The notes under the pieces are model-generated. The model worked only from the letters and a program-made list of their open reading frames with translations, was not told the DNA's origin and did not search any database. The translations under genes were made by a program, and so were the position numbers. Below are positions 3,635 to 63,251 of a stretch of 64,000 nt of DNA, in pieces. The DNA comes from a virus (taxonomy: Duplodnaviria > Caudoviricetes), in IMG/VR virus record IMGVR_UViG_3300028805_000037, positions 160,001-224,000 of that record; one strand, written 5' to 3'. Every line of letters begins with the position of its first letter. The first letter of the stretch is position 1.

Positions 3635-4246
3635 ATGCTTTTTCGTGGACGTAGATTAATAAAAACTACATTTGTAAGTATATTACAACAATTATTTACA
3701 AATGATCCTAAATTTCCATGGAATAAAAATGTATTACAAACAAAAATCTTTCTCGATGAAAGTTTTATGAGAAGTGATCGTAAATTCCCCTATATAGTAG
3801 TAACTGATGTAACTAATGACAATTTTTTTAAAACAAGCTTTGATAGAAATTATCAAACAGAAGTATATGATGATGAAGGAAATCTTAAAGGTACTCGTTA
3901 TGGTGGTGCTATGCATCCAAGTTTTAGATTAGAATTTGGTGCACTTAATATTTATGATCTTGAGATTATTATTGATAAAGTTGAATCATTTTTCGAATTT
4001 ACTGGTGTACAAAAATTACATGATGCTGGAATAGTAATTGAAAATATAAGTGATAGTGGAATAAATACAGAAACTTATGGTAAAGATAATGTATATATAT
4101 TAAGTATAACTTTTAATATATATACTGAATGGGAAAAATATATTACAGTTGAAGAAGCCGAACTTATTAATCAAGTTGAAGTAGAAAATATAACTATATA
4201 TGATAAAGATGATAATGTTTTACATATTGATAAACCTGGTGATTAG
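3635..4246 (+). CDS. putative tail terminator/completion protein
   Basis: FPYIVV motif, size, and position immediately before the sheath gene. Confidence 0.5.
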   Translation: MLFRGRRLIKTTFVSILQQLFTNDPKFPWNKNVLQTKIFLDESFMRSDRKFPYIVVTDVTNDNFFKTSFDRNYQTEVYDDEGNLKGTRYGGAMHPSFRLEFGALNIYDLEIIIDKVESFFEFTGVQKLHDAGIVIENISDSGINTETYGKDNVYILSITFNIYTEWEKYITVEEAELINQVEVENITIYDKDDNVLHIDKPGD

Positions 4247-4263
4247 CAAAGTAAAATTTAAAT

Positions 4264-4353
4264 TTCTATGAGAATTATTTTCTCTATACATTTCAACGAT
4301 GTTGTTTTACTACCAACTATCTCGATGTACATTTATGAATGATAGACTCACCC
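4264..4353 (-). ncRNA. TnpB omegaRNA (reRNA)-like scaffold, copy 1, overlapping the tnpB 3' end
   Basis: Overlaps the last ~12 codons of tnpB; homologous to 5535-5624 and 39111-39199 with covarying stems. Confidence 0.8.
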
Positions 4354-5456
4354 AAACTTTTTAAATTTAAAGCTGCATTTAAATCTCTATTTATTAAAGA
4401 ACCACAATTAGGACAAGTCCATTGTCTATCTTTTAATTGTAATTCTTTATATTTATAACCACAATTATTACAAATTTTAGAAGAAGCAAAAAATCTATCA
4501 GCAAATATTAAATACTTTCCTTTTCTTTTTAATTTATATTGTAATTGCCATATAAATTGAGCATAACCAAGATCATTTACTGATTTACCAAAAATTTTAC
4601 TCATTCCTTTTAAATTTAGAGATTCTACAACTATTATGTCATTTTCATTAACTAATTTATTACTTAAATTATGTAAAAAATTAGTTCTTTCATTAGTAAT
4701 ATGATAATGAATTCTACTGATTGATTTTCTCAGTTTTCTAAATCTATTACTATTATGTTTTTTCTTACTTATTTTTTTATTTAATTGTTTTAAATATTTT
4801 TCATATTTTCTATATAATCGTATATATTCTGGAGAATTATTATTTGAATCTATAAAAAATGATTGTAAACTCATATCTAAACCTAAAATTTTAGATTCAT
4901 CATTAATTTGTACTTGTTTAATATTAATATCTTGTTCAACATTAAAAGAAATAAAATAATGTTCTGAAGTATCTTTACTTATTGTAGCATGTTTAATTTT
5001 ACCTATTATTTTTCTTTTATCTTTATAATTTATCCATCCAACTATAGGTATTTTAATTTTATGATTATCATAATTAATTTTGATATTATTATTTATAAAT
5101 GATGTAGTATAAGAACCACCATATTTTTTCTTTTTAAATTGAGGAAAACCAAAATTATTTTTTACCTTTAATGATTTATAAAAATTATTATAAGCATCTT
5201 TTAAATTAACAAAAGTCCACATAAATGATTGTGAATCAACTTCATCCATAAATTTATATTCATTTTTTATTTGTTTTATTGTTTTATACTTATATTTATA
5301 TAATGTATTTTTATCATTTTTATATTTTTGATATATTTCTTTTCTTTCAGCTAACATTAAATTATACATTAATCTATTACAACCAATAGTTTTATCTATA
5401 AGTTCTTTTTGTTTATTATTAGGATAAATTCTAAATTTATAAGCAAATTGTTCCAT
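4317..5456 (-). CDS. tnpB: TnpB RNA-guided endonuclease (IS200/IS605-IS1341 type, no tnpA)
   Basis: N-terminal AYKFRIYPN HTH; RuvC D (GLDMS), E (VVESL), D (NRDLNAALNL); zinc finger CNNC/CPNC. Confidence 0.95.
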   Translation of the reverse strand: MEQFAYKFRIYPNNKQKELIDKTIGCNRLMYNLMLAERKEIYQKYKNDKNTLYKYKYKTIKQIKNEYKFMDEVDSQSFMWTFVNLKDAYNNFYKSLKVKNNFGFPQFKKKKYGGSYTTSFINNNIKINYDNHKIKIPIVGWINYKDKRKIIGKIKHATISKDTSEHYFISFNVEQDINIKQVQINDESKILGLDMSLQSFFIDSNNNSPEYIRLYRKYEKYLKQLNKKISKKKHNSNRFRKLRKSISRIHYHITNERTNFLHNLSNKLVNENDIIVVESLNLKGMSKIFGKSVNDLGYAQFIWQLQYKLKRKGKYLIFADRFFASSKICNNCGYKYKELQLKDRQWTCPNCGSLINRDLNAALNLKSLGESIIHKCTSR

Positions 5457-5534
5457 AATTTTTAAATTTAAATTAAGTTGAATTTAATATTTTATATCAT
5501 TTAATTAAGTGCATAATTTAAATTTAAAAAGATA

Positions 5535-5624
5535 GGACGAATCCATCGCTCTTAAATGTACATCGAGATAGGAAGTATTAAATTCCATCAATGAAATGTA
5601 TAGAGAAATAAAATTCTCATGGAG
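5535..5624 (+). ncRNA. stand-alone omegaRNA-like copy 2, in the leader of the tail sheath gene
   Basis: Shares AAATGTACATCGAGATA...GAAATGTATAGAGAA...TTCTCAT with copy 1; compensatory stem changes. Confidence 0.8.
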
Positions 5625-5659
5625 ATTTAAAATAGATTTTTAAATGTGAGGTAAAATAT

Positions 5660-7402
5660 ATGACAAGATTAGGGCCGGGAGTTTATACAGAAGATGGAGC
5701 AAATGCAAATTTAGCTTCTTCTTTATCAGGATTTAATATAACAGCAGTTATTGGTTTAGGTAAAAATTGGAAATTAATTAGTGATGTTGAAATAGTTAAA
5801 TCTGAACCTGAAACAAATGAACCTACAGCAAATGAATTACTTTATAGTAATGTAGTTGATACATTTATTGGTGATAAATTAATTCCATATACAACTTATG
5901 TTTTACCTATAACTTCTTCAAATGCTGGTTATTATAGAGTTAATTCATCAATACAAGGTGCTTTAGAAGTTGTAAGTAATGATACTGAAAATCCTACAGA
6001 TAAACAAATAAAAATTGAAAATGTTACACCTTGGCAAGAATCAGATTCAGTTGTTATTGGTGATTATGTAATTGAATGTAATGATGGTGATTATCTTGAA
6101 AGAGATGAAGATGTAACTGGAGTAAAATTTGTTATACCTACATTAAAAAATAATGATATAATTACTGATGCAAATGGAGCTGCAATAGATTTTGATGTTA
6201 TACAAAGTATAGTAAGTTTAGGAACACTTCCTGGATTAAATCAATATAATATAAATCAAGATTATATAATAGAAAAAATTTCTTCAGAAGATGAATTAAA
6301 TGGCAAAGCTCAAATAACTTGGTTATATAATAATTATCCTGCAGTTGGTAGCTCATTTTATATTACATATAAGCAATTAAAAGATGATAAAGATTATTCG
6401 CCTAAATATAAATATTCTACTGAATCTATAACTAATGATTATGGAGCTGAATATGATAATGGTGTTGTAAATTCATTATCATTAGCAGCAGATCTTGTTA
6501 TTGAAGGCCAGACTGTATTTGGTGGTGGAGTTCTTTGTTGTCAAGTAAAAGATAATACTCTTCAAGGTTGGAAAGATGCAATAGATAAACTTGATAGTAA
6601 AGTATTTAATACATATATATTAACAAATCAGCAAGGCGAATTTGGACAACAATTACAAACATATTTAAAAAGTAAAATTGAAATGTTATCAAGTATAACT
6701 TATAAATCTGAAAAGACAGCATTTTATATTCCATTTGATAAAGATATGGAAATAGAAACAATTAATGCTTATAGAGAAGCTTTAAATTCACAAAGAATAA
6801 CATTATTTGGTAATAAAACTTGTACAGTAGAACTTGTTGATAATACAACATTAGAAACTGAATTTGTAGAATTACCTTCAATTTATGCTTGTGCAAATCT
6901 TTCTGGTATTGAAGGAAATCCTGAATATACATTTAGTGAACCTATGTTAAGAAAGCAATTATCACCAAGAATAACATTTAATGAAGAACAAAGATATAAT
7001 CCTTCTGAAATGACTTCACTTGATAATAATGGCGTTAGTATATTTGATATGGATTTATTAACAAATATTTCTTATGTATATGTTATTGGTACCACTGATA
7101 TGACTAATGTTATAACCGAAACTAGAGCTGTTAGAAGAGAAACTGATTTACTTAGACAAAATGTAAGAAGAAATCTTAATCAATACATTGGTAAAAAGAA
7201 TAAACCTATAACTGCTGCTAGTGCTACTGAAACAACAAAAGCGATGTTAAGAAATTTTGTTAATATTGATGAGATAGCTGGATTTAGAGATGTTACATCT
7301 TGGTTTGATGAACAAGATCCAAGATTATTAAAACAATCATTCTGGTATTTAAGTTATTTGGAAACCAGATGGATTCATGTAACTATTGGAGCAGAAATTT
7401 AG
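5660..7402 (+). CDS. tail sheath protein
   Basis: N-terminal PGVYTE motif, TAVIG, C-terminal VRRETD; 580 aa. Confidence 0.9.
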   Translation: MTRLGPGVYTEDGANANLASSLSGFNITAVIGLGKNWKLISDVEIVKSEPETNEPTANELLYSNVVDTFIGDKLIPYTTYVLPITSSNAGYYRVNSSIQGALEVVSNDTENPTDKQIKIENVTPWQESDSVVIGDYVIECNDGDYLERDEDVTGVKFVIPTLKNNDIITDANGAAIDFDVIQSIVSLGTLPGLNQYNINQDYIIEKISSEDELNGKAQITWLYNNYPAVGSSFYITYKQLKDDKDYSPKYKYSTESITNDYGAEYDNGVVNSLSLAADLVIEGQTVFGGGVLCCQVKDNTLQGWKDAIDKLDSKVFNTYILTNQQGEFGQQLQTYLKSKIEMLSSITYKSEKTAFYIPFDKDMEIETINAYREALNSQRITLFGNKTCTVELVDNTTLETEFVELPSIYACANLSGIEGNPEYTFSEPMLRKQLSPRITFNEEQRYNPSEMTSLDNNGVSIFDMDLLTNISYVYVIGTTDMTNVITETRAVRRETDLLRQNVRRNLNQYIGKKNKPITAASATETTKAMLRNFVNIDEIAGFRDVTSWFDEQDPRLLKQSFWYLSYLETRWIHVTIGAEI

Positions 7403-7411
7403 TTTTAAATA

Positions 7412-7550
7412 TAAAAAGGTATTGCGAACACCTTAGACTAGTTAAAAATATTAATTATTATATTTTTTAATATAATATATAAATGTAGCTTATAGAATCT
7501 AGTCTAAAGTTCGCAAAACTTAAATAAAATTCTATAGGCTATTTTTATTT
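7412..7550 (+). ncRNA. promoter plus hairpin-RNA element, family B copy 1
   Basis: TATAAT at 7471; stem TAGCTTATAGAAT/ATTCTATAGGCTA plus T-tract; loop complementary to 7422-7441; homologous to 38963-39097. Confidence 0.6.
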
Positions 7551-7564
7551 ATGGAGATATAATA

Positions 7565-7690
7565 ATGAATAAAGAAGAAATACAAAAAATTATTGATGAA
7601 TTTATTAAAGAAGATTTTATTGTTACAAATAGCCAAGGATGTTTAAATTTACGTAATAATAAAAATATAATAAATAAATATAATAATTGA
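7565..7690 (+). pseudogene. 41-aa ORF remnant truncated at the IS607 left end (possibly a former endonuclease gene)
   Basis: GGAG RBS then MNKEEIQKIIDEFIKEDFIVTNSQGCLNLRNNKNIINKYNN; runs into the AT-rich IS end. Confidence 0.4.
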
Positions 7691-7770
7691 AAATATATAA
7701 AATAATATAAAAAAATATAAAATTATTAAAACACTTTAATTTAAATTTAAAATAAATGAAGGAATAATAA

Positions 7771-8385
7771 ATGAAATCAAAACAAGTTTTAAAATTATTA
7801 CAAGTATCAAGAGTAACACTTTCAAAATATGTAAAGACTGGCTTAATTAAAGTAACAATGAAAAAAAATAAAACTTATGATTATGATGAAGATAGTATAT
7901 ATTCTTTTTTGGGAAAAAATAAAGTTGAAGAACAAAAATTAAATATAATTTATGCTAGAACTTCAAATCCACCTAAAAAATATGCTGAAGAGCAATCACA
8001 AAGAGTATTAAATTTTTGTACTTCTAAAGGTATACAAATAGATAAAATATTTATTGATGTTAAATCTGGAATGAATTTTCAAAGAATAGAATTTTTAAAA
8101 TTAATAGATTTAATAATTAATAATAAAGTAAAATTAGTAGTTATTGAAAATAAAGATAGATTAGTAAGATTTGGTTTTGAATTATTACAAGAATTATTTA
8201 AAAAGTTTGGATGTGAAATATTAATAGTAAACAATTTGTCTGAAAAAACTTATGAGCAAGAATTAACTGAAGATTTAATTTCAATAATACATTATTTTTC
8301 TATGAAATCATATTCTAATAGAAGAAAATTAAATAAAATTAAAGAAGAATTACAAAACAATGATAACATTAAAAATCAAATATAA
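7771..8385 (+). CDS. tnpA: IS607 transposase TnpA (MerR-like HTH plus serine recombinase)
   Basis: IIYARTS catalytic Ser; DVKSGMNFQR; ENKDRLVRFGFE; ELTEDLISIIHYFS. Confidence 0.95.
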   Translation: MKSKQVLKLLQVSRVTLSKYVKTGLIKVTMKKNKTYDYDEDSIYSFLGKNKVEEQKLNIIYARTSNPPKKYAEEQSQRVLNFCTSKGIQIDKIFIDVKSGMNFQRIEFLKLIDLIINNKVKLVVIENKDRLVRFGFELLQELFKKFGCEILIVNNLSEKTYEQELTEDLISIIHYFSMKSYSNRRKLNKIKEELQNNDNIKNQI

Positions 8386-9727
8386 CACTAATTTAAATAA
8401 TATAAATATAATTAAACAATATCAAAGACAATATACTATTTGTTATAAAGTTATATATAAATATTTAAAATTAGGTTTAAAATCTAATCAAATTAAAGAA
8501 AAATTAAAAAATTATAAAAATATTAATTTAATTATAAATAATTCTTGGTTTATAAATTGTTTATTTTATGATGTTAAATGCATTTTAAAAGAAACAAATA
8601 ATGTATGTTTTAATTATAATTTACATTTAAAAAGAAATAAAAATTTAATAACAAAACAAGAATTTAAAGAAAATAAGTATTTTCAAGTTTGTTCTAATGG
8701 AGAAATAGATAAAAAATGTAATAGATTCTTTAAAATTTTAAATATTAATCAAATTTTATTTAAGCCCAATAAATATACAAAAATATTATTAAATTTGCAA
8801 AGTTTAGGTAAAAATAGGATTAAAATATTACAACAATTATTAAATTTACAAAATAAAAATAATATTTTATCTATAACTTATAAATTAAATAAAGATTATA
8901 TTTATTTAACATTTGATGAATCTAATTTATCTTTAATTAAATTAAAACCAATAAATAATAGAATATTTGCTATAGATATGAATCCTAATTATATAGGTTA
9001 TTCTATTATAGATTGGAAAGATACTGAAAATTTAAAATTTAATCTTATTAATGCTGGCATAATTTCTTTAAAATCATTAAATGATAAATATTTTAGTTTT
9101 AAAAAATTAAAATTATCATCTAATAATAAATTAAAATTGCATTTAACTAATAAAAGAAAATTTGAAATCTTTGAAGTAAGTAAACAATTAATAAAATTAG
9201 CTAAACATTATAAATGTGAATTTTTTGCTATTGAAGATTTAAATATAAAATCTAATGATAAAAATTTAGGTAAAAAATTTAATAGTTTATGTAATAATTT
9301 ATGGAATAGAAATAAATTACAACAAAATATACAAAAAAGATGTAATTTAATAGGAATAAAATTTAAAAAAATAATTGCAAATTATAGTTCTATATTAGGT
9401 AATTCATTATATAGAAATTTAAAATTACCAGATATGATTTTATCTTCTATAGAAATTAGTAGAAGATGTCAAGAATTTAATTTACAATATATTAAAAAAA
9501 GTAAAAAAGTTACAAAAAATATTATTTTTCCAAATTTAACTGAAAAAGTAAGAAATTTATTAAATCAGACTATGGAAGTATTGGGAAATAAATTTCAATT
9601 TGAAACAATCAATAATTTTTGTTATTTTTTAAAAAAGAACTTTAAAAATAAATATAGAGTTCCTCTAGATTTAACTAGAGTCTTTAGACAAAAACATTTA
9701 AAATATCAATTAATAAATTTTATATAA
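8360..9727 (+). CDS. tnpB: IS607-associated TnpB-like nuclease, lacking a zinc finger
   Basis: AIDMNPNYIG (RuvC-I), AIEDL (RuvC-II), YSSILGN...PDMILSSIEISRR (RuvC-III). Confidence 0.85.
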   Translation: MITLKIKYNTNLNNINIIKQYQRQYTICYKVIYKYLKLGLKSNQIKEKLKNYKNINLIINNSWFINCLFYDVKCILKETNNVCFNYNLHLKRNKNLITKQEFKENKYFQVCSNGEIDKKCNRFFKILNINQILFKPNKYTKILLNLQSLGKNRIKILQQLLNLQNKNNILSITYKLNKDYIYLTFDESNLSLIKLKPINNRIFAIDMNPNYIGYSIIDWKDTENLKFNLINAGIISLKSLNDKYFSFKKLKLSSNNKLKLHLTNKRKFEIFEVSKQLIKLAKHYKCEFFAIEDLNIKSNDKNLGKKFNSLCNNLWNRNKLQQNIQKRCNLIGIKFKKIIANYSSILGNSLYRNLKLPDMILSSIEISRRCQEFNLQYIKKSKKVTKNIIFPNLTEKVRNLLNQTMEVLGNKFQFETINNFCYFLKKNFKNKYRVPLDLTRVFRQKHLKYQLINFI

Positions 9728-9827
9728 ATTTATATTGTTTTAAATTGTTTTTGTTATTTAAATCAATTTAAAAATTGGTATAATAATTTAAATTTAAAAT
9801 AGATTTGTATAAGAGAGGTAAAAATAT

Positions 9828-10361
9828 ATGTCAGATATTTTCCTAAAACCGGGAGTTTCGCGTTACAAACTTGCAACTAATTATGAATGGTATGCTGTTG
9901 TACCTGGTACACAAAAACGTATAAAAATTGGTGGTTGTCAATCATTAAATGATTCGCAAACAAAAAATGTTACAAGAACTCATGAATTGAATATGGAAGA
10001 ACCTAGATGTGTAGAATTAACTCAAGGTTTAGTTACAGATATAAGTGTTACTGTTTCTAGAATAGAATTAAATACATCAAATTTACTTGAGGAGTTTACG
10101 GGAATTTCGGGAATCGAGTCATTATATGATCAAAGTTTATATTTTGATATAGAAGCTGCAGTATATATACCAAGACAAAATGCTGATGGAACTTTTGATC
10201 CTAAAAAAGAAAATGCAACAAGAATAATACAAAGAACTTATAAGGATTGTGTTATTACATCTTATGGAAGAAATGTAGGAATAGAAGGGAATATACAAGT
10301 AACTGAAAATGCAACAATACAAGTAAGATATATACAACCTGGTAGTAAATCTGAAAATTAA
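9828..10361 (+). CDS. tail tube protein
   Basis: Follows the sheath gene; KIGGCQSL, YKDCVITSYGRN...VTENATI pattern; 177 aa. Confidence 0.8.
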   Translation: MSDIFLKPGVSRYKLATNYEWYAVVPGTQKRIKIGGCQSLNDSQTKNVTRTHELNMEEPRCVELTQGLVTDISVTVSRIELNTSNLLEEFTGISGIESLYDQSLYFDIEAAVYIPRQNADGTFDPKKENATRIIQRTYKDCVITSYGRNVGIEGNIQVTENATIQVRYIQPGSKSEN

Positions 10362-34093: not shown

Positions 34094-35380
34094 ATGAAAA
34101 CAATAATTTTTAAAATCAAATTAAATAAAGAATTACAAAAAGTTATAGATGAAGATTCTAGAATATGTTCATCTATATATAGATTTGCGTTTAATAGATT
34201 TCAAGATAGATTATCAAATAAAGATAATTATATTTTAATATCTGAAAAATTTAAAGATGTTAATTGCCATTTAAGAAATTCTTCTTTACGAGCAGCTAAT
34301 AGTTTATTTAAAAAGTTAAAATTTACTAAAGGAGTAAAATTTGGCTTAGTAGATAAAATTAAAAAGGGCTTAATAACTAAAGAAGAATATAAACAATCTA
34401 GAAATGTAGGTATATTATCAGAAGGTGAATTCAATCAAAAAGGTAATAGATTATTTCAAATTGATTTAAAAAATAATTGTTTTATTTATAAAAGAAGTGT
34501 TAAAGAGCATTATAAATTAGAAATTATAGAAAAATTGAATAATAAAAGAAAACATATTTTACAAATTTTATATAATTTAATGATATCTAAAACAATTCCA
34601 GTAACTTTTAAATTAAAAAATGATTTAGTTTATATAACTTATGATGAATCTATAGTTGAAAAAGAAAAACAATTTAAAAATTTATTTAATAATAGAGTTT
34701 TAGGTATAGATTTAAATCCAAATTATTTTGGTTTATCAATTATAGAATTTAATCATAATAATAATTTTAAAATTATATTTAAACAAGTTATAGATTTAAA
34801 TGAATTACAAAATATTAATAATAAAAATAAAATTAAATATGAATTGCAACAAATAAATCATTATTTGATTAAATTATGTAAAAATTATCATGTTTCTAAA
34901 ATATCAGTTGAAGATTTAAAATTTAATCCTAAAAATAAATTTTGGAATAAAGATTTAAATAGATTATGTAAAAATAAATTTAGATATTCTATAATAAAAA
35001 ATCATTTAAAAACTTTATGTAATACTTATGGTGTTCAATATATAGAAGTAAATTCTTGTTATTCATCTATTATAGGTAACTTTAAATATGGCTCTGAAAA
35101 TTGTCCAGATATGATAGCTGCAAGTATAGAAATAGCAAGAAGATGCTATAAAAAGTTTGAAAAAGGTTGGTTCCAACCGATGTTTATTACTAAACAAAGA
35201 TTACAAAAAGTTTTAGGAAATCAATGGAAGAAAGAACTAAAACTAAGTTGTAAATCTTGGAAAGAACTAACTAGGAAAATTAAAGAACTTAAATTAAAAT
35301 ATAGGTTCCAGCTTATACCTTTAAATGCTGTCTTTAGTGTTTTTTATATAAAAAAGTTATATAAATTATATACTTTTTAA
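34094..35380 (+). CDS. tnpB: IS607-type TnpB-like nuclease without a zinc finger (paralogue of 8360-9727), no tnpA
   Basis: GIDLNPNYFG; SVEDL; YSSIIGN...PDMIAASIEIARR. Confidence 0.85.
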   Translation: MKTIIFKIKLNKELQKVIDEDSRICSSIYRFAFNRFQDRLSNKDNYILISEKFKDVNCHLRNSSLRAANSLFKKLKFTKGVKFGLVDKIKKGLITKEEYKQSRNVGILSEGEFNQKGNRLFQIDLKNNCFIYKRSVKEHYKLEIIEKLNNKRKHILQILYNLMISKTIPVTFKLKNDLVYITYDESIVEKEKQFKNLFNNRVLGIDLNPNYFGLSIIEFNHNNNFKIIFKQVIDLNELQNINNKNKIKYELQQINHYLIKLCKNYHVSKISVEDLKFNPKNKFWNKDLNRLCKNKFRYSIIKNHLKTLCNTYGVQYIEVNSCYSSIIGNFKYGSENCPDMIAASIEIARRCYKKFEKGWFQPMFITKQRLQKVLGNQWKKELKLSCKSWKELTRKIKELKLKYRFQLIPLNAVFSVFYIKKLYKLYTF

Positions 35381-38962: not shown

Positions 38963-39097
38963 AATAAAAAAGCTTATAGAAATTTTGATTTTAAAACTTT
39001 GGTAAATTTTACTCAGCTTTCTATAAGCTTTATCAATATATTATATTAAATATATTCATTTTATATACTGAGTAAGGTTTTACCAATACCTTTTTAC
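38963..39097 (-). ncRNA. promoter plus hairpin-RNA element, family B copy 2
   Basis: 14-bp stem AAAGCTTATAGAAA/TTTCTATAAGCTTT plus T-tract; loop complementary to its upstream site 39068-39086; homologous to 7412-7550. Confidence 0.6.
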
Positions 39098-39110
39098 AAC
39101 TTTTTTAAAT

Positions 39111-39199
39111 TTCCATAAGAACTATTTTCTCTATACATTTCAACGATTCTATTTACTACTAGATATCTCGATGTACATTTAAGAACAATGGACTTGCCC
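39111..39199 (-). ncRNA. stand-alone omegaRNA-like copy 3
   Basis: Aligns end to end with 4264-4353 (one gap), with compensatory changes. Confidence 0.8.
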
Positions 39200-39250
39200 T
39201 TTATTTTTAAATTTAAATTAAAGCCCTCGGAGTTTCATTGATTTTGAAAA

Positions 39251-63168: not shown

Positions 63169-63251
63169 TCTTGGTAATTCCAAAATTTAAATTTAAAAAT
63201 TAGGACTTATAGAGTCCTTTTATATATAAATTTAATTTAGAGGTATATTTT

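Follow-up and report, generated by a model that had tools for sequence, protein, structure and literature searches.

Late-promoter paralogy as the probable source of a TAM-flanked self-match of an orphan omegaRNA guide in a jumbo phage

The guide of a gene-less omegaRNA remnant lying upstream of the tail sheath gene of a jumbo phage matches, directly beside the correct TAM, a second promoter of the same genome, close to the tail tube gene. This self-match is real, and in our judgement it probably stems from promoter paralogy, which would make the tube-proximal site a near-cognate off-target of a homing TnpB nuclease (TnpB-1) and not the product of evolved regulation. The self-match mostly follows from the element's choice of insertion site, and its context is more interesting than the match: within the late-promoter consensus of the phage lies the motif that a TnpB family is predicted to use both as TAM and for insertion. 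For this element family, the promoters would be both landing sites and potential nuclease targets. The case also advises caution against reading guide-to-genome matches as regulation, since the guide here is a split promoter.

The window analyzed here, a stretch of 64,000 nt, corresponds to bases 160001-224000 of a 300,445-bp jumbo phage genome with 26% G+C, whose sequence is nearly complete in sheep-gut metagenome runs and which is 98% complete as assembled. Throughout the genome (300 kb) the motif AATTTAAATTTAAAA occurs in 24 exact copies, 22 of them on the + strand; 10 exact copies fall within the window, where 15 copies with at most one mismatch compare with 2.65 expected. Almost all copies lie 0-70 nt upstream of start codons in gene orientation, and the genes behind them include those for the tail tube, the tail chaperone and the baseplate wedge (phrog_6), as well as many at 243-296 kb. 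From position and strand bias only, we read AATTTAAATTTAAAA as the late-promoter consensus of the phage. TTTAAAT, the candidate TAM and insertion motif of the TnpB-1 family (Table 1), is part of this consensus, and every late promoter would thus present a TAM followed by a short seed. The motifs also form subgroups in the window and the genome whose next 4-6 bases are identical, such as a TATGAG subgroup (window 11065 and genome 157299, with TATG at genome 260587) and an ATTAT subgroup (window 30710 and, on the minus strand, 5460); as a result, guides derived from promoters can match other promoters over as many as 12 nt.

Table 1. Features of the sheath and tube-proximal regions (window coordinates)
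Feature	Position	Strand	Evidence or remark
Guide of omegaRNA copy 1, TTAAATTTTACTTTGC	4246-4261	minus	Flank of right end 1
OmegaRNA scaffold copy 1, overlapping the tnpB-1 3' end, ending ...CATAGAAAT	4262-4358	minus	Repeat families, alignment
tnpB-1, 379 aa, RuvC triad intact	4317-5456	minus	Pfam and structure match
Left-end region of the tnpB-1 element	5457-5514	minus	Homologous left ends in L004, L005 and L100
Complete late-promoter motif at 5' edge of orphan copy 2	5515-5529	+	Motif search
Orphan omegaRNA scaffold (copy 2), ending ...CATGGAGAT	5530-5626	+	Stems and pseudoknot TCCA/TGGA kept
Predicted copy-2 guide, TTAAAATAGATTTTTA	5627-5642	+	L096 empty site, right-end boundary
Tail sheath gene, 580 aa	5660-7402	+	Weak Pfam Phage_sheath_1C match; relatives
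Accessory cassette: hairpin leader (7417-7564) and small-ORF 5' part (7565-7670)	7417-7670	+	Absent from L096
IS607-type element	7671-9761	+	L098 copy at another locus; inserted at AAAATAT[AA]
Serine tnpA	7771-8385	+	Pfam resolvase domain; phrog_6620 transposase
RuvC-like ORF, 455 aa	8360-9727	+	96% identical protein in L098
Small-ORF 3' part, ...NQFKNWYNNLNLK, stop TAG 9800-9802	9762-9802	+	Reading frame
Late-promoter motif copy before tube gene	9785-9799	+	One of the 24 exact AATTTAAATTTAAAA copies
TTTAAAT, candidate TAM of the tnpB-1 family, within the motif	9787-9793	+	L096 empty site and left-end flanks
Near-cognate target of the copy-2 guide	9794-9809	+	13 contiguous bases, 15/16, mismatch at 9807
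Tail tube gene, 177 aa	9828-10361	+	Homology; phrog_985 virion structural protein

In TnpB-omegaRNA systems the guide RNA is formed by the right end plus ~16 nt of flank, TAM and insertion motif are one and the same, and the unoccupied site is the target (PMC8612924; bioRxiv 10.1101/2023.03.14.532601, 10.1101/2023.11.20.567912). Judging from its sequence, the system in the window is such a TnpB-omegaRNA (OMEGA) system with solo right-end RNA remnants. TnpB-1 carries the Pfam domains HTH_OrfB_IS605, OrfB_IS605 (RuvC) and Cas12f1-like_TNB (zinc ribbon), matches ISDra2 TnpB structures with an E value of 9e-64, and has a D-E-D triad (D194, E278 and D358) that is invariant among 28 relatives; the scaffold runs over the tnpB 3' end and the guide varies between insertions. 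Four canonical tnpB genes are encoded in the genome in total. Its transposases comprise one serine transposase and a weak Y1 transposase remnant; the ends and target of the serine transposase's element differ from those of the tnpB-1 family, and no matching transposase for this family was identified in the genome. Because a right end ending in AT reads like a duplicated AT core, the junctions appear compatible with IS605 and IS607 mobilisation alike. The Y1 remnant, which contains stops, lies at genome 251522-251638 and 252493-252696 beside another tnpB. A late-motif copy at 5460-5474 (minus) is situated 3 nt from the tnpB-1 ATG, a start codon without a Shine-Dalgarno sequence, and the motif-to-start spacing is 1-3 nt for tnpB in the relatives L004, L005 and L100; the tnpB mRNA may be leaderless. 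Protein searches of IMG/VR with the tube protein and TnpB-1 returned no close relative for either, and in the phage collection the tube protein had no match and TnpB-1 only matches of at most 40% identity.

The omegaRNA repeat is present in the window as copy 1 (4262-4371, minus), copy 2 (5515-5631, plus; 80% identical to copy 1) and copy 3 (39104-39219, minus). Copies 2 and 3 are gene-less, retain the complete scaffold and align solely to the last ~115 nt of the element; upstream of them, on their own strand, there was no left-end homology and no left-end hairpin was recognised. Their sequence suggests solo right ends that are immobile. Each begins with a complete late-promoter motif and is placed where it would lead a downstream transcript; for the sheath transcript, the 5' leader would be a gene-less omegaRNA. 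An alignment of nine sequences, namely the three window copies and six related elements from metagenome contigs, gives a fold with three hairpins, and the first loop pairs with the 3' end in a pseudoknot; each of these helices shows compensatory changes. In total, 85% of cells are paired, both partners have changed in 10 pairs, and none of 500 shuffles reached the observed covariation score. Paired at 94%, the pseudoknot helix appears as TCTA/TAGA in copy 1 and L004, as TCCA/TGGA in copies 2 and 3 and the L007 group, and as CAGA/TCTG in L005, where the pairing was read by eye and the 3' part is misaligned in the alignment. Rfam contained no family at the gathering threshold for the whole window and no meaningful match in E-value mode for 4100-10000, and the exact omegaRNA pattern had no occurrence in IMG/VR.

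Where the guide begins determines how long the self-match is. Copy 1, L004, L100 and L101 have near-identical right ends at four loci, with unrelated sequence directly after ...ATAGAAAT, and the 3' strand of the pseudoknot ends 3 nt before this boundary, (A/G)AT being those three bases. From this divergence and the pseudoknot covariation, we place the start of the copy-2 guide at 5627 (±2), with a length of 16 nt assumed by analogy with ISDra2 (PMC8612924). The initial annotation had proposed a start at 5625 and the TAM TTTAA, for which 5627 and TTTAAAT are the better choices: the left-end flanks read T(T/A)AAAT in L100, L004, L005, L007 and L088, the left-end boundary being ambiguous (inner or outer), and TTTAAAT precedes the guide-matching target in the empty site of L096. 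It had also considered a guide that starts after ATTTAAA. In that case ATTTAAA, which follows all three window copies, would be scaffold, the guide would start at 5632 and the match would shrink to 8 nt. This reading fails on inspection and is scarcely credible, since L100, L101 and L004 share the same right end with different bases after ...GAAAT, the pseudoknot finishes before this boundary, and ATTTAAA(A) is promoter DNA according to the L096 empty site.

This empty site is found in a relative, L096, whose sheath protein is 98% identical to that of the window and which carries no TnpB block upstream of the sheath gene. The order in L096 is the stop codon of a 203-aa gene, an intact motif, ATAGATTTT, and then a ribosome-binding site and start identical to those of the window. 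These flanks lie apart in the window, with 4264-5626 between them, a block of 1363 nt made of right end 1, tnpB-1, its left end, the motif copy and copy 2, with outward-reading omegaRNA right ends on both of its outer sides. The block splits the sheath promoter between TTTAAAT and TTAAAA, at a palindromic AT. Comparison of the L096 empty site with the split promoter thus identifies the copy-2 guide as the half of the sheath promoter that lies downstream of the split, followed by the sheath leader. Relative to window 5625-5659, the empty promoter in L096 (4956-5000) has an extra A (AAAAAT vs AAAAT), so the copy-2 guide would pair with only six bases there; escape from the guide or simple drift may account for the extra A.

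The match itself was described correctly: ATTTAAAATAGATTT occurs exactly twice in the window (5625-5639 and 9792-9806), as it does in the 300,445-bp genome, and TTTAA at 9787-9791 precedes the second copy. The next base differs, T at 5640 vs G at 9807. Of the matched bases, 6-8 are fixed by the late-promoter consensus, the number being eight for the 15-base match. As the insertion motif is at once the TAM and a part of the promoter, guides made at such sites start with the promoter's last six bases. The sheath and tube-proximal leaders then both continue with TAGATTT, a string that follows no other motif copy, and this extends the match beside the correct TAM to the length given in Table 1; the tube-proximal site mimics the empty site across 22 bases. 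The next best site of the copy-2 guide in the genome has only 8 matching bases. Seed matches reported at 7740, 11067, 18247 and 34082 do exist, and all of them are copies of the AATTTAAATTTAAAA motif. Paralogy of the leaders, already offered by the initial annotation as a possible cause, accounts better for the match, and in a sharper form: the TAM belongs to the consensus, while the split sheath promoter itself supplies the guide.

How unusual the match is can be judged from 24 mock guides, each consisting of the 16 bases after TTTAAAT at one motif copy, for which TAAAT-flanked matches elsewhere were collected. Their best contiguous match elsewhere in the genome was 8-12 nt, with 12 nt in 3 of the 24. 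The observed 13 contiguous bases exceed all 24 but are not far outside this range, and represent the upper tail of late-promoter likeness, not an outlier of a different kind. One may ask whether the additional TAGATTT has simply arisen by chance, the genome being AT-rich, so that meaning attaches to no more than the 8 consensus bases. Apart from the 12 matches reached by promoter-derived control guides, the copy-1 guide TTAAATTTTACTTTGC also matches 13 contiguous bases (14/16) beside TAAAT at genome 1804-1819, where the match has no plausible meaning, and base frequencies give a probability of roughly 2% that, of the ~10 promoters with TTAAAATA in common, one carries GATTT as well. That estimate is low, however, both promoters serve neighbouring, co-expressed tail genes, and their leaders are similar as far as the ribosome-binding site, which together make coincidence a very unlikely account. 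The TAGATTT as such is compatible with shared descent and with chance alike; a copy event or a shared constraint may tie the sheath leader to the tube leader in a way that promoter likeness does not explain. The copy-1 match, outside the window and within a coding region (...YYKFKFYF...), is apparently accidental.

The surroundings of the tube-proximal site bear on its possible function. The site had been taken for the tail-tube promoter; it is not, however, native to the tube gene, sitting as it does in an accessory block missing from the 98% relative. In L096, the sheath-tube spacing is 30 nt without a consensus motif, and window 7417-9812 amounts to 2396 extra bases between sheath and tube. 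The tube protein itself is 58% identical to the ORF directly after the sheath gene in L005 and 51% identical to an L090 ORF with a faint Phi812_tail_tube match. Within the block lies an IS607-type element. It encodes a serine recombinase TnpA, repeats a core dinucleotide at either junction and has not duplicated its target. In L098 the same element lies inside the 3' end of a homologue of the 203-aa gene, and comparison of this filled site with the intact 203-aa gene of the window defines the junctions as AAAATAT[AA]/ and ...TTT[AA]/. Excision of the element restores a 48-codon ORF (7565-7670 plus 9762-9802), whose last codons, ...NNLNLK followed by TAG, contain the late motif. A stretch paralogous to 9762-9802 lies upstream of the motif at genome 263846, and the leader and N-terminus of the ORF are part of a repeated cassette also found at genome 257.7, 260.6 and 262.4 kb. 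Since L096 lacks 7417-9812 and the motif lies inside the restored small ORF, the "tube promoter" is part of an accessory cassette and not of the ancestral tube gene.

Several other observations concern this block. The 17-nt repeats at 7738 and 9785 raised the possibility that 9787-9806 was the IS607 right end or its own guide, which was rejected as the right end stops at 9761 according to L098. The insertion sequence AAAATAT[AA] is also present in the L096 sheath-tube spacer. Besides the three genomic copies, the repeated leader cassettes include window 7417-7564 and 38963-39097 (minus), the latter directly after the guide of copy 3. Their order is late motif, hairpin arm, TATATAATATATA palindrome, second arm, GGAGATATAATA and ORF, and (M/V)NKEEIQKI opens two of the ORFs, the one at window 7565 and the one at genome 260.6 kb.

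How could such a self-match have arisen? In the explanation we favour, copy 2 is the omegaRNA right-end remnant of a tnpB-1-type element inside the sheath late promoter, and a guide made at such an insertion consists of the promoter's last six bases and then the leader. On the published TnpB model, the RNP would recognise TTTAAAT plus a guide match, that is, an unoccupied sheath promoter. TnpB-1 with the copy-2 RNA may thus act in homing or retention by cutting the unoccupied sheath promoters of sibling genomes, and cleavage followed by recombination would favour retention or spread of the element. The tube-proximal promoter would then be a collateral near-cognate site, not an evolved target, and would presumably be poorly cut or repaired from sister genomes. 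Against this explanation, the stems and pseudoknot kept by copy 2 are what a functional guide RNA would have, and with such an RNA the tube site would be a genuine liability.

As the initial annotation held, a TnpB RNP could, by sequence, recognise the tube site; the tuning that it suggested is not supported as an evolved role, and no indication of selection for the match was found. Overall, we regard it as unlikely that TnpB-1 with the copy-2 RNA acts on 9787-9809, whether by throttling tube transcription or by cutting the allele with the cassette and IS607. Were the site bound or cut, it would present a natural active TnpB acting on a promoter of its own genome.

Binding without productive cleavage would amount to RNA-guided tuning, in which TnpB-1 and the copy-2 RNA damp tail transcription from the tube-proximal promoter and may also bind all late promoters transiently through the TAM and a 6-8-nt seed. 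The TAM and 13 contiguous bases span the 3' half of the promoter and the start of the leader, and the TAM followed by TTAAAA is present at every consensus promoter. Furthermore, an engineered ISDge10 TnpB with 10-nt guides is reported to bind without cutting (PMC13507860), TnpB binding is reported to be strongly TAM-dependent and mismatch-tolerant (bioRxiv 10.1101/2023.03.14.532601), and phage-encoded TnpB-like repressors (TldR) are known; weak TnpB occupancy of all late promoters is conceivable. However, the RuvC triad of TnpB-1 is intact, unlike that of TldR, 13 matched bases exceed the length reported for binding only, and the match is close to the range of likeness between promoter pairs. 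In addition, the accessory block that holds the promoter is recent and missing in the 98% relative, so that a dedicated circuit would have to be very young. Taken with these objections, tuning is decidedly improbable.

Cutting, on the other hand, would turn the site into a conflict between mobile elements: the RNP would cut at ~9808-9815, and in mixed infections repair from an L096-like genome would remove the cassette and IS607. The nuclease appears competent and the scaffold intact, the TAM is accompanied by 15/16 matches, the one mismatched base being distant from it, and the target exists only in the allele with the cassette and IS607. If true, this would be a case in which the guided nuclease of one mobile element polices the insertion of another in a jumbo phage. 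Yet the arrangement persists in an assembled genome that is 98% complete, and any cutting is therefore not lethal. We consider self-cleavage of this kind quite unlikely, and collateral recognition by a homing TnpB-1 the better reading of the site.

Comparison with known systems helps to place the case. TnpB-omegaRNA elements of the IS200/IS605 and IS607 groups (ISDra2, ISGst, CboIStron) resemble it in the RuvC nuclease, the right-end guide and a scaffold with stems and a pseudoknot at the 3' end, and probably also in the joint TAM and insertion motif. Unlike those systems, the host here is a jumbo phage, and the candidate TAM TTTAAAT is within the phage's own late-promoter consensus. PATEs, gene-less IS200/IS605 derivatives that supply omegaRNA in trans, are similar to copies 2 and 3, which have no ORF and would need TnpB in trans. 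But PATEs keep both subterminal palindromes, whereas copies 2 and 3 keep the right end only, and with the left end absent from their sequence they do not qualify as PATEs. TldR proteins, nuclease-dead TnpB-like phage repressors, share with the present case a phage-borne TnpB-family protein and a guide matching a promoter region. They have lost RuvC residues or are truncated at the C-terminus, whereas TnpB-1 keeps its full length and its three catalytic positions, and because the triad is kept TnpB-1 is not a TldR or any other nuclease-dead repressor. Moreover, unlike with TldR, the promoter that is matched here belongs to the phage itself, and the history of the insertion site accounts for the match. 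In CRISPR-Cas systems, self-targeting spacers are likewise near-perfect, motif-flanked matches in the genome that encodes the guide, but the copy-2 guide is a transposon-end flank that was not acquired, and promoter paralogy is the probable source of its match. What makes the setting noteworthy is that, in a jumbo phage, the TAM is coupled to the promoter consensus; the match is best filed as a promoter-paralogy off-target.

Two further loci of the window deserve mention. The 455-aa ORF at 8360-9727 has a 428-aa paralogue at 34094-35380 (33% identical), the two carrying the motifs IDMNPN/IDLNPN and IEDLN/VEDLK. Neither had a match in the Pfam copy used or in the PDB; 928 homologues were found at E <= 1e-10, some tagged PF27229, and the ORFs probably belong to a divergent RuvC (TnpB-like) family. 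The gene neighbouring tnpB in L004 was tried as a sheath gene with a copy-2 empty site and rejected, since tblastn maps it to window 63252 onwards. Window 63169-63251, an intergenic segment between an MJ0330_N-like gene and the next gene, has an intact late motif at 63184 and is the unoccupied counterpart of a tnpB-1-type insertion place that is occupied in L004 (88% TnpB identity) and L089 (69%).
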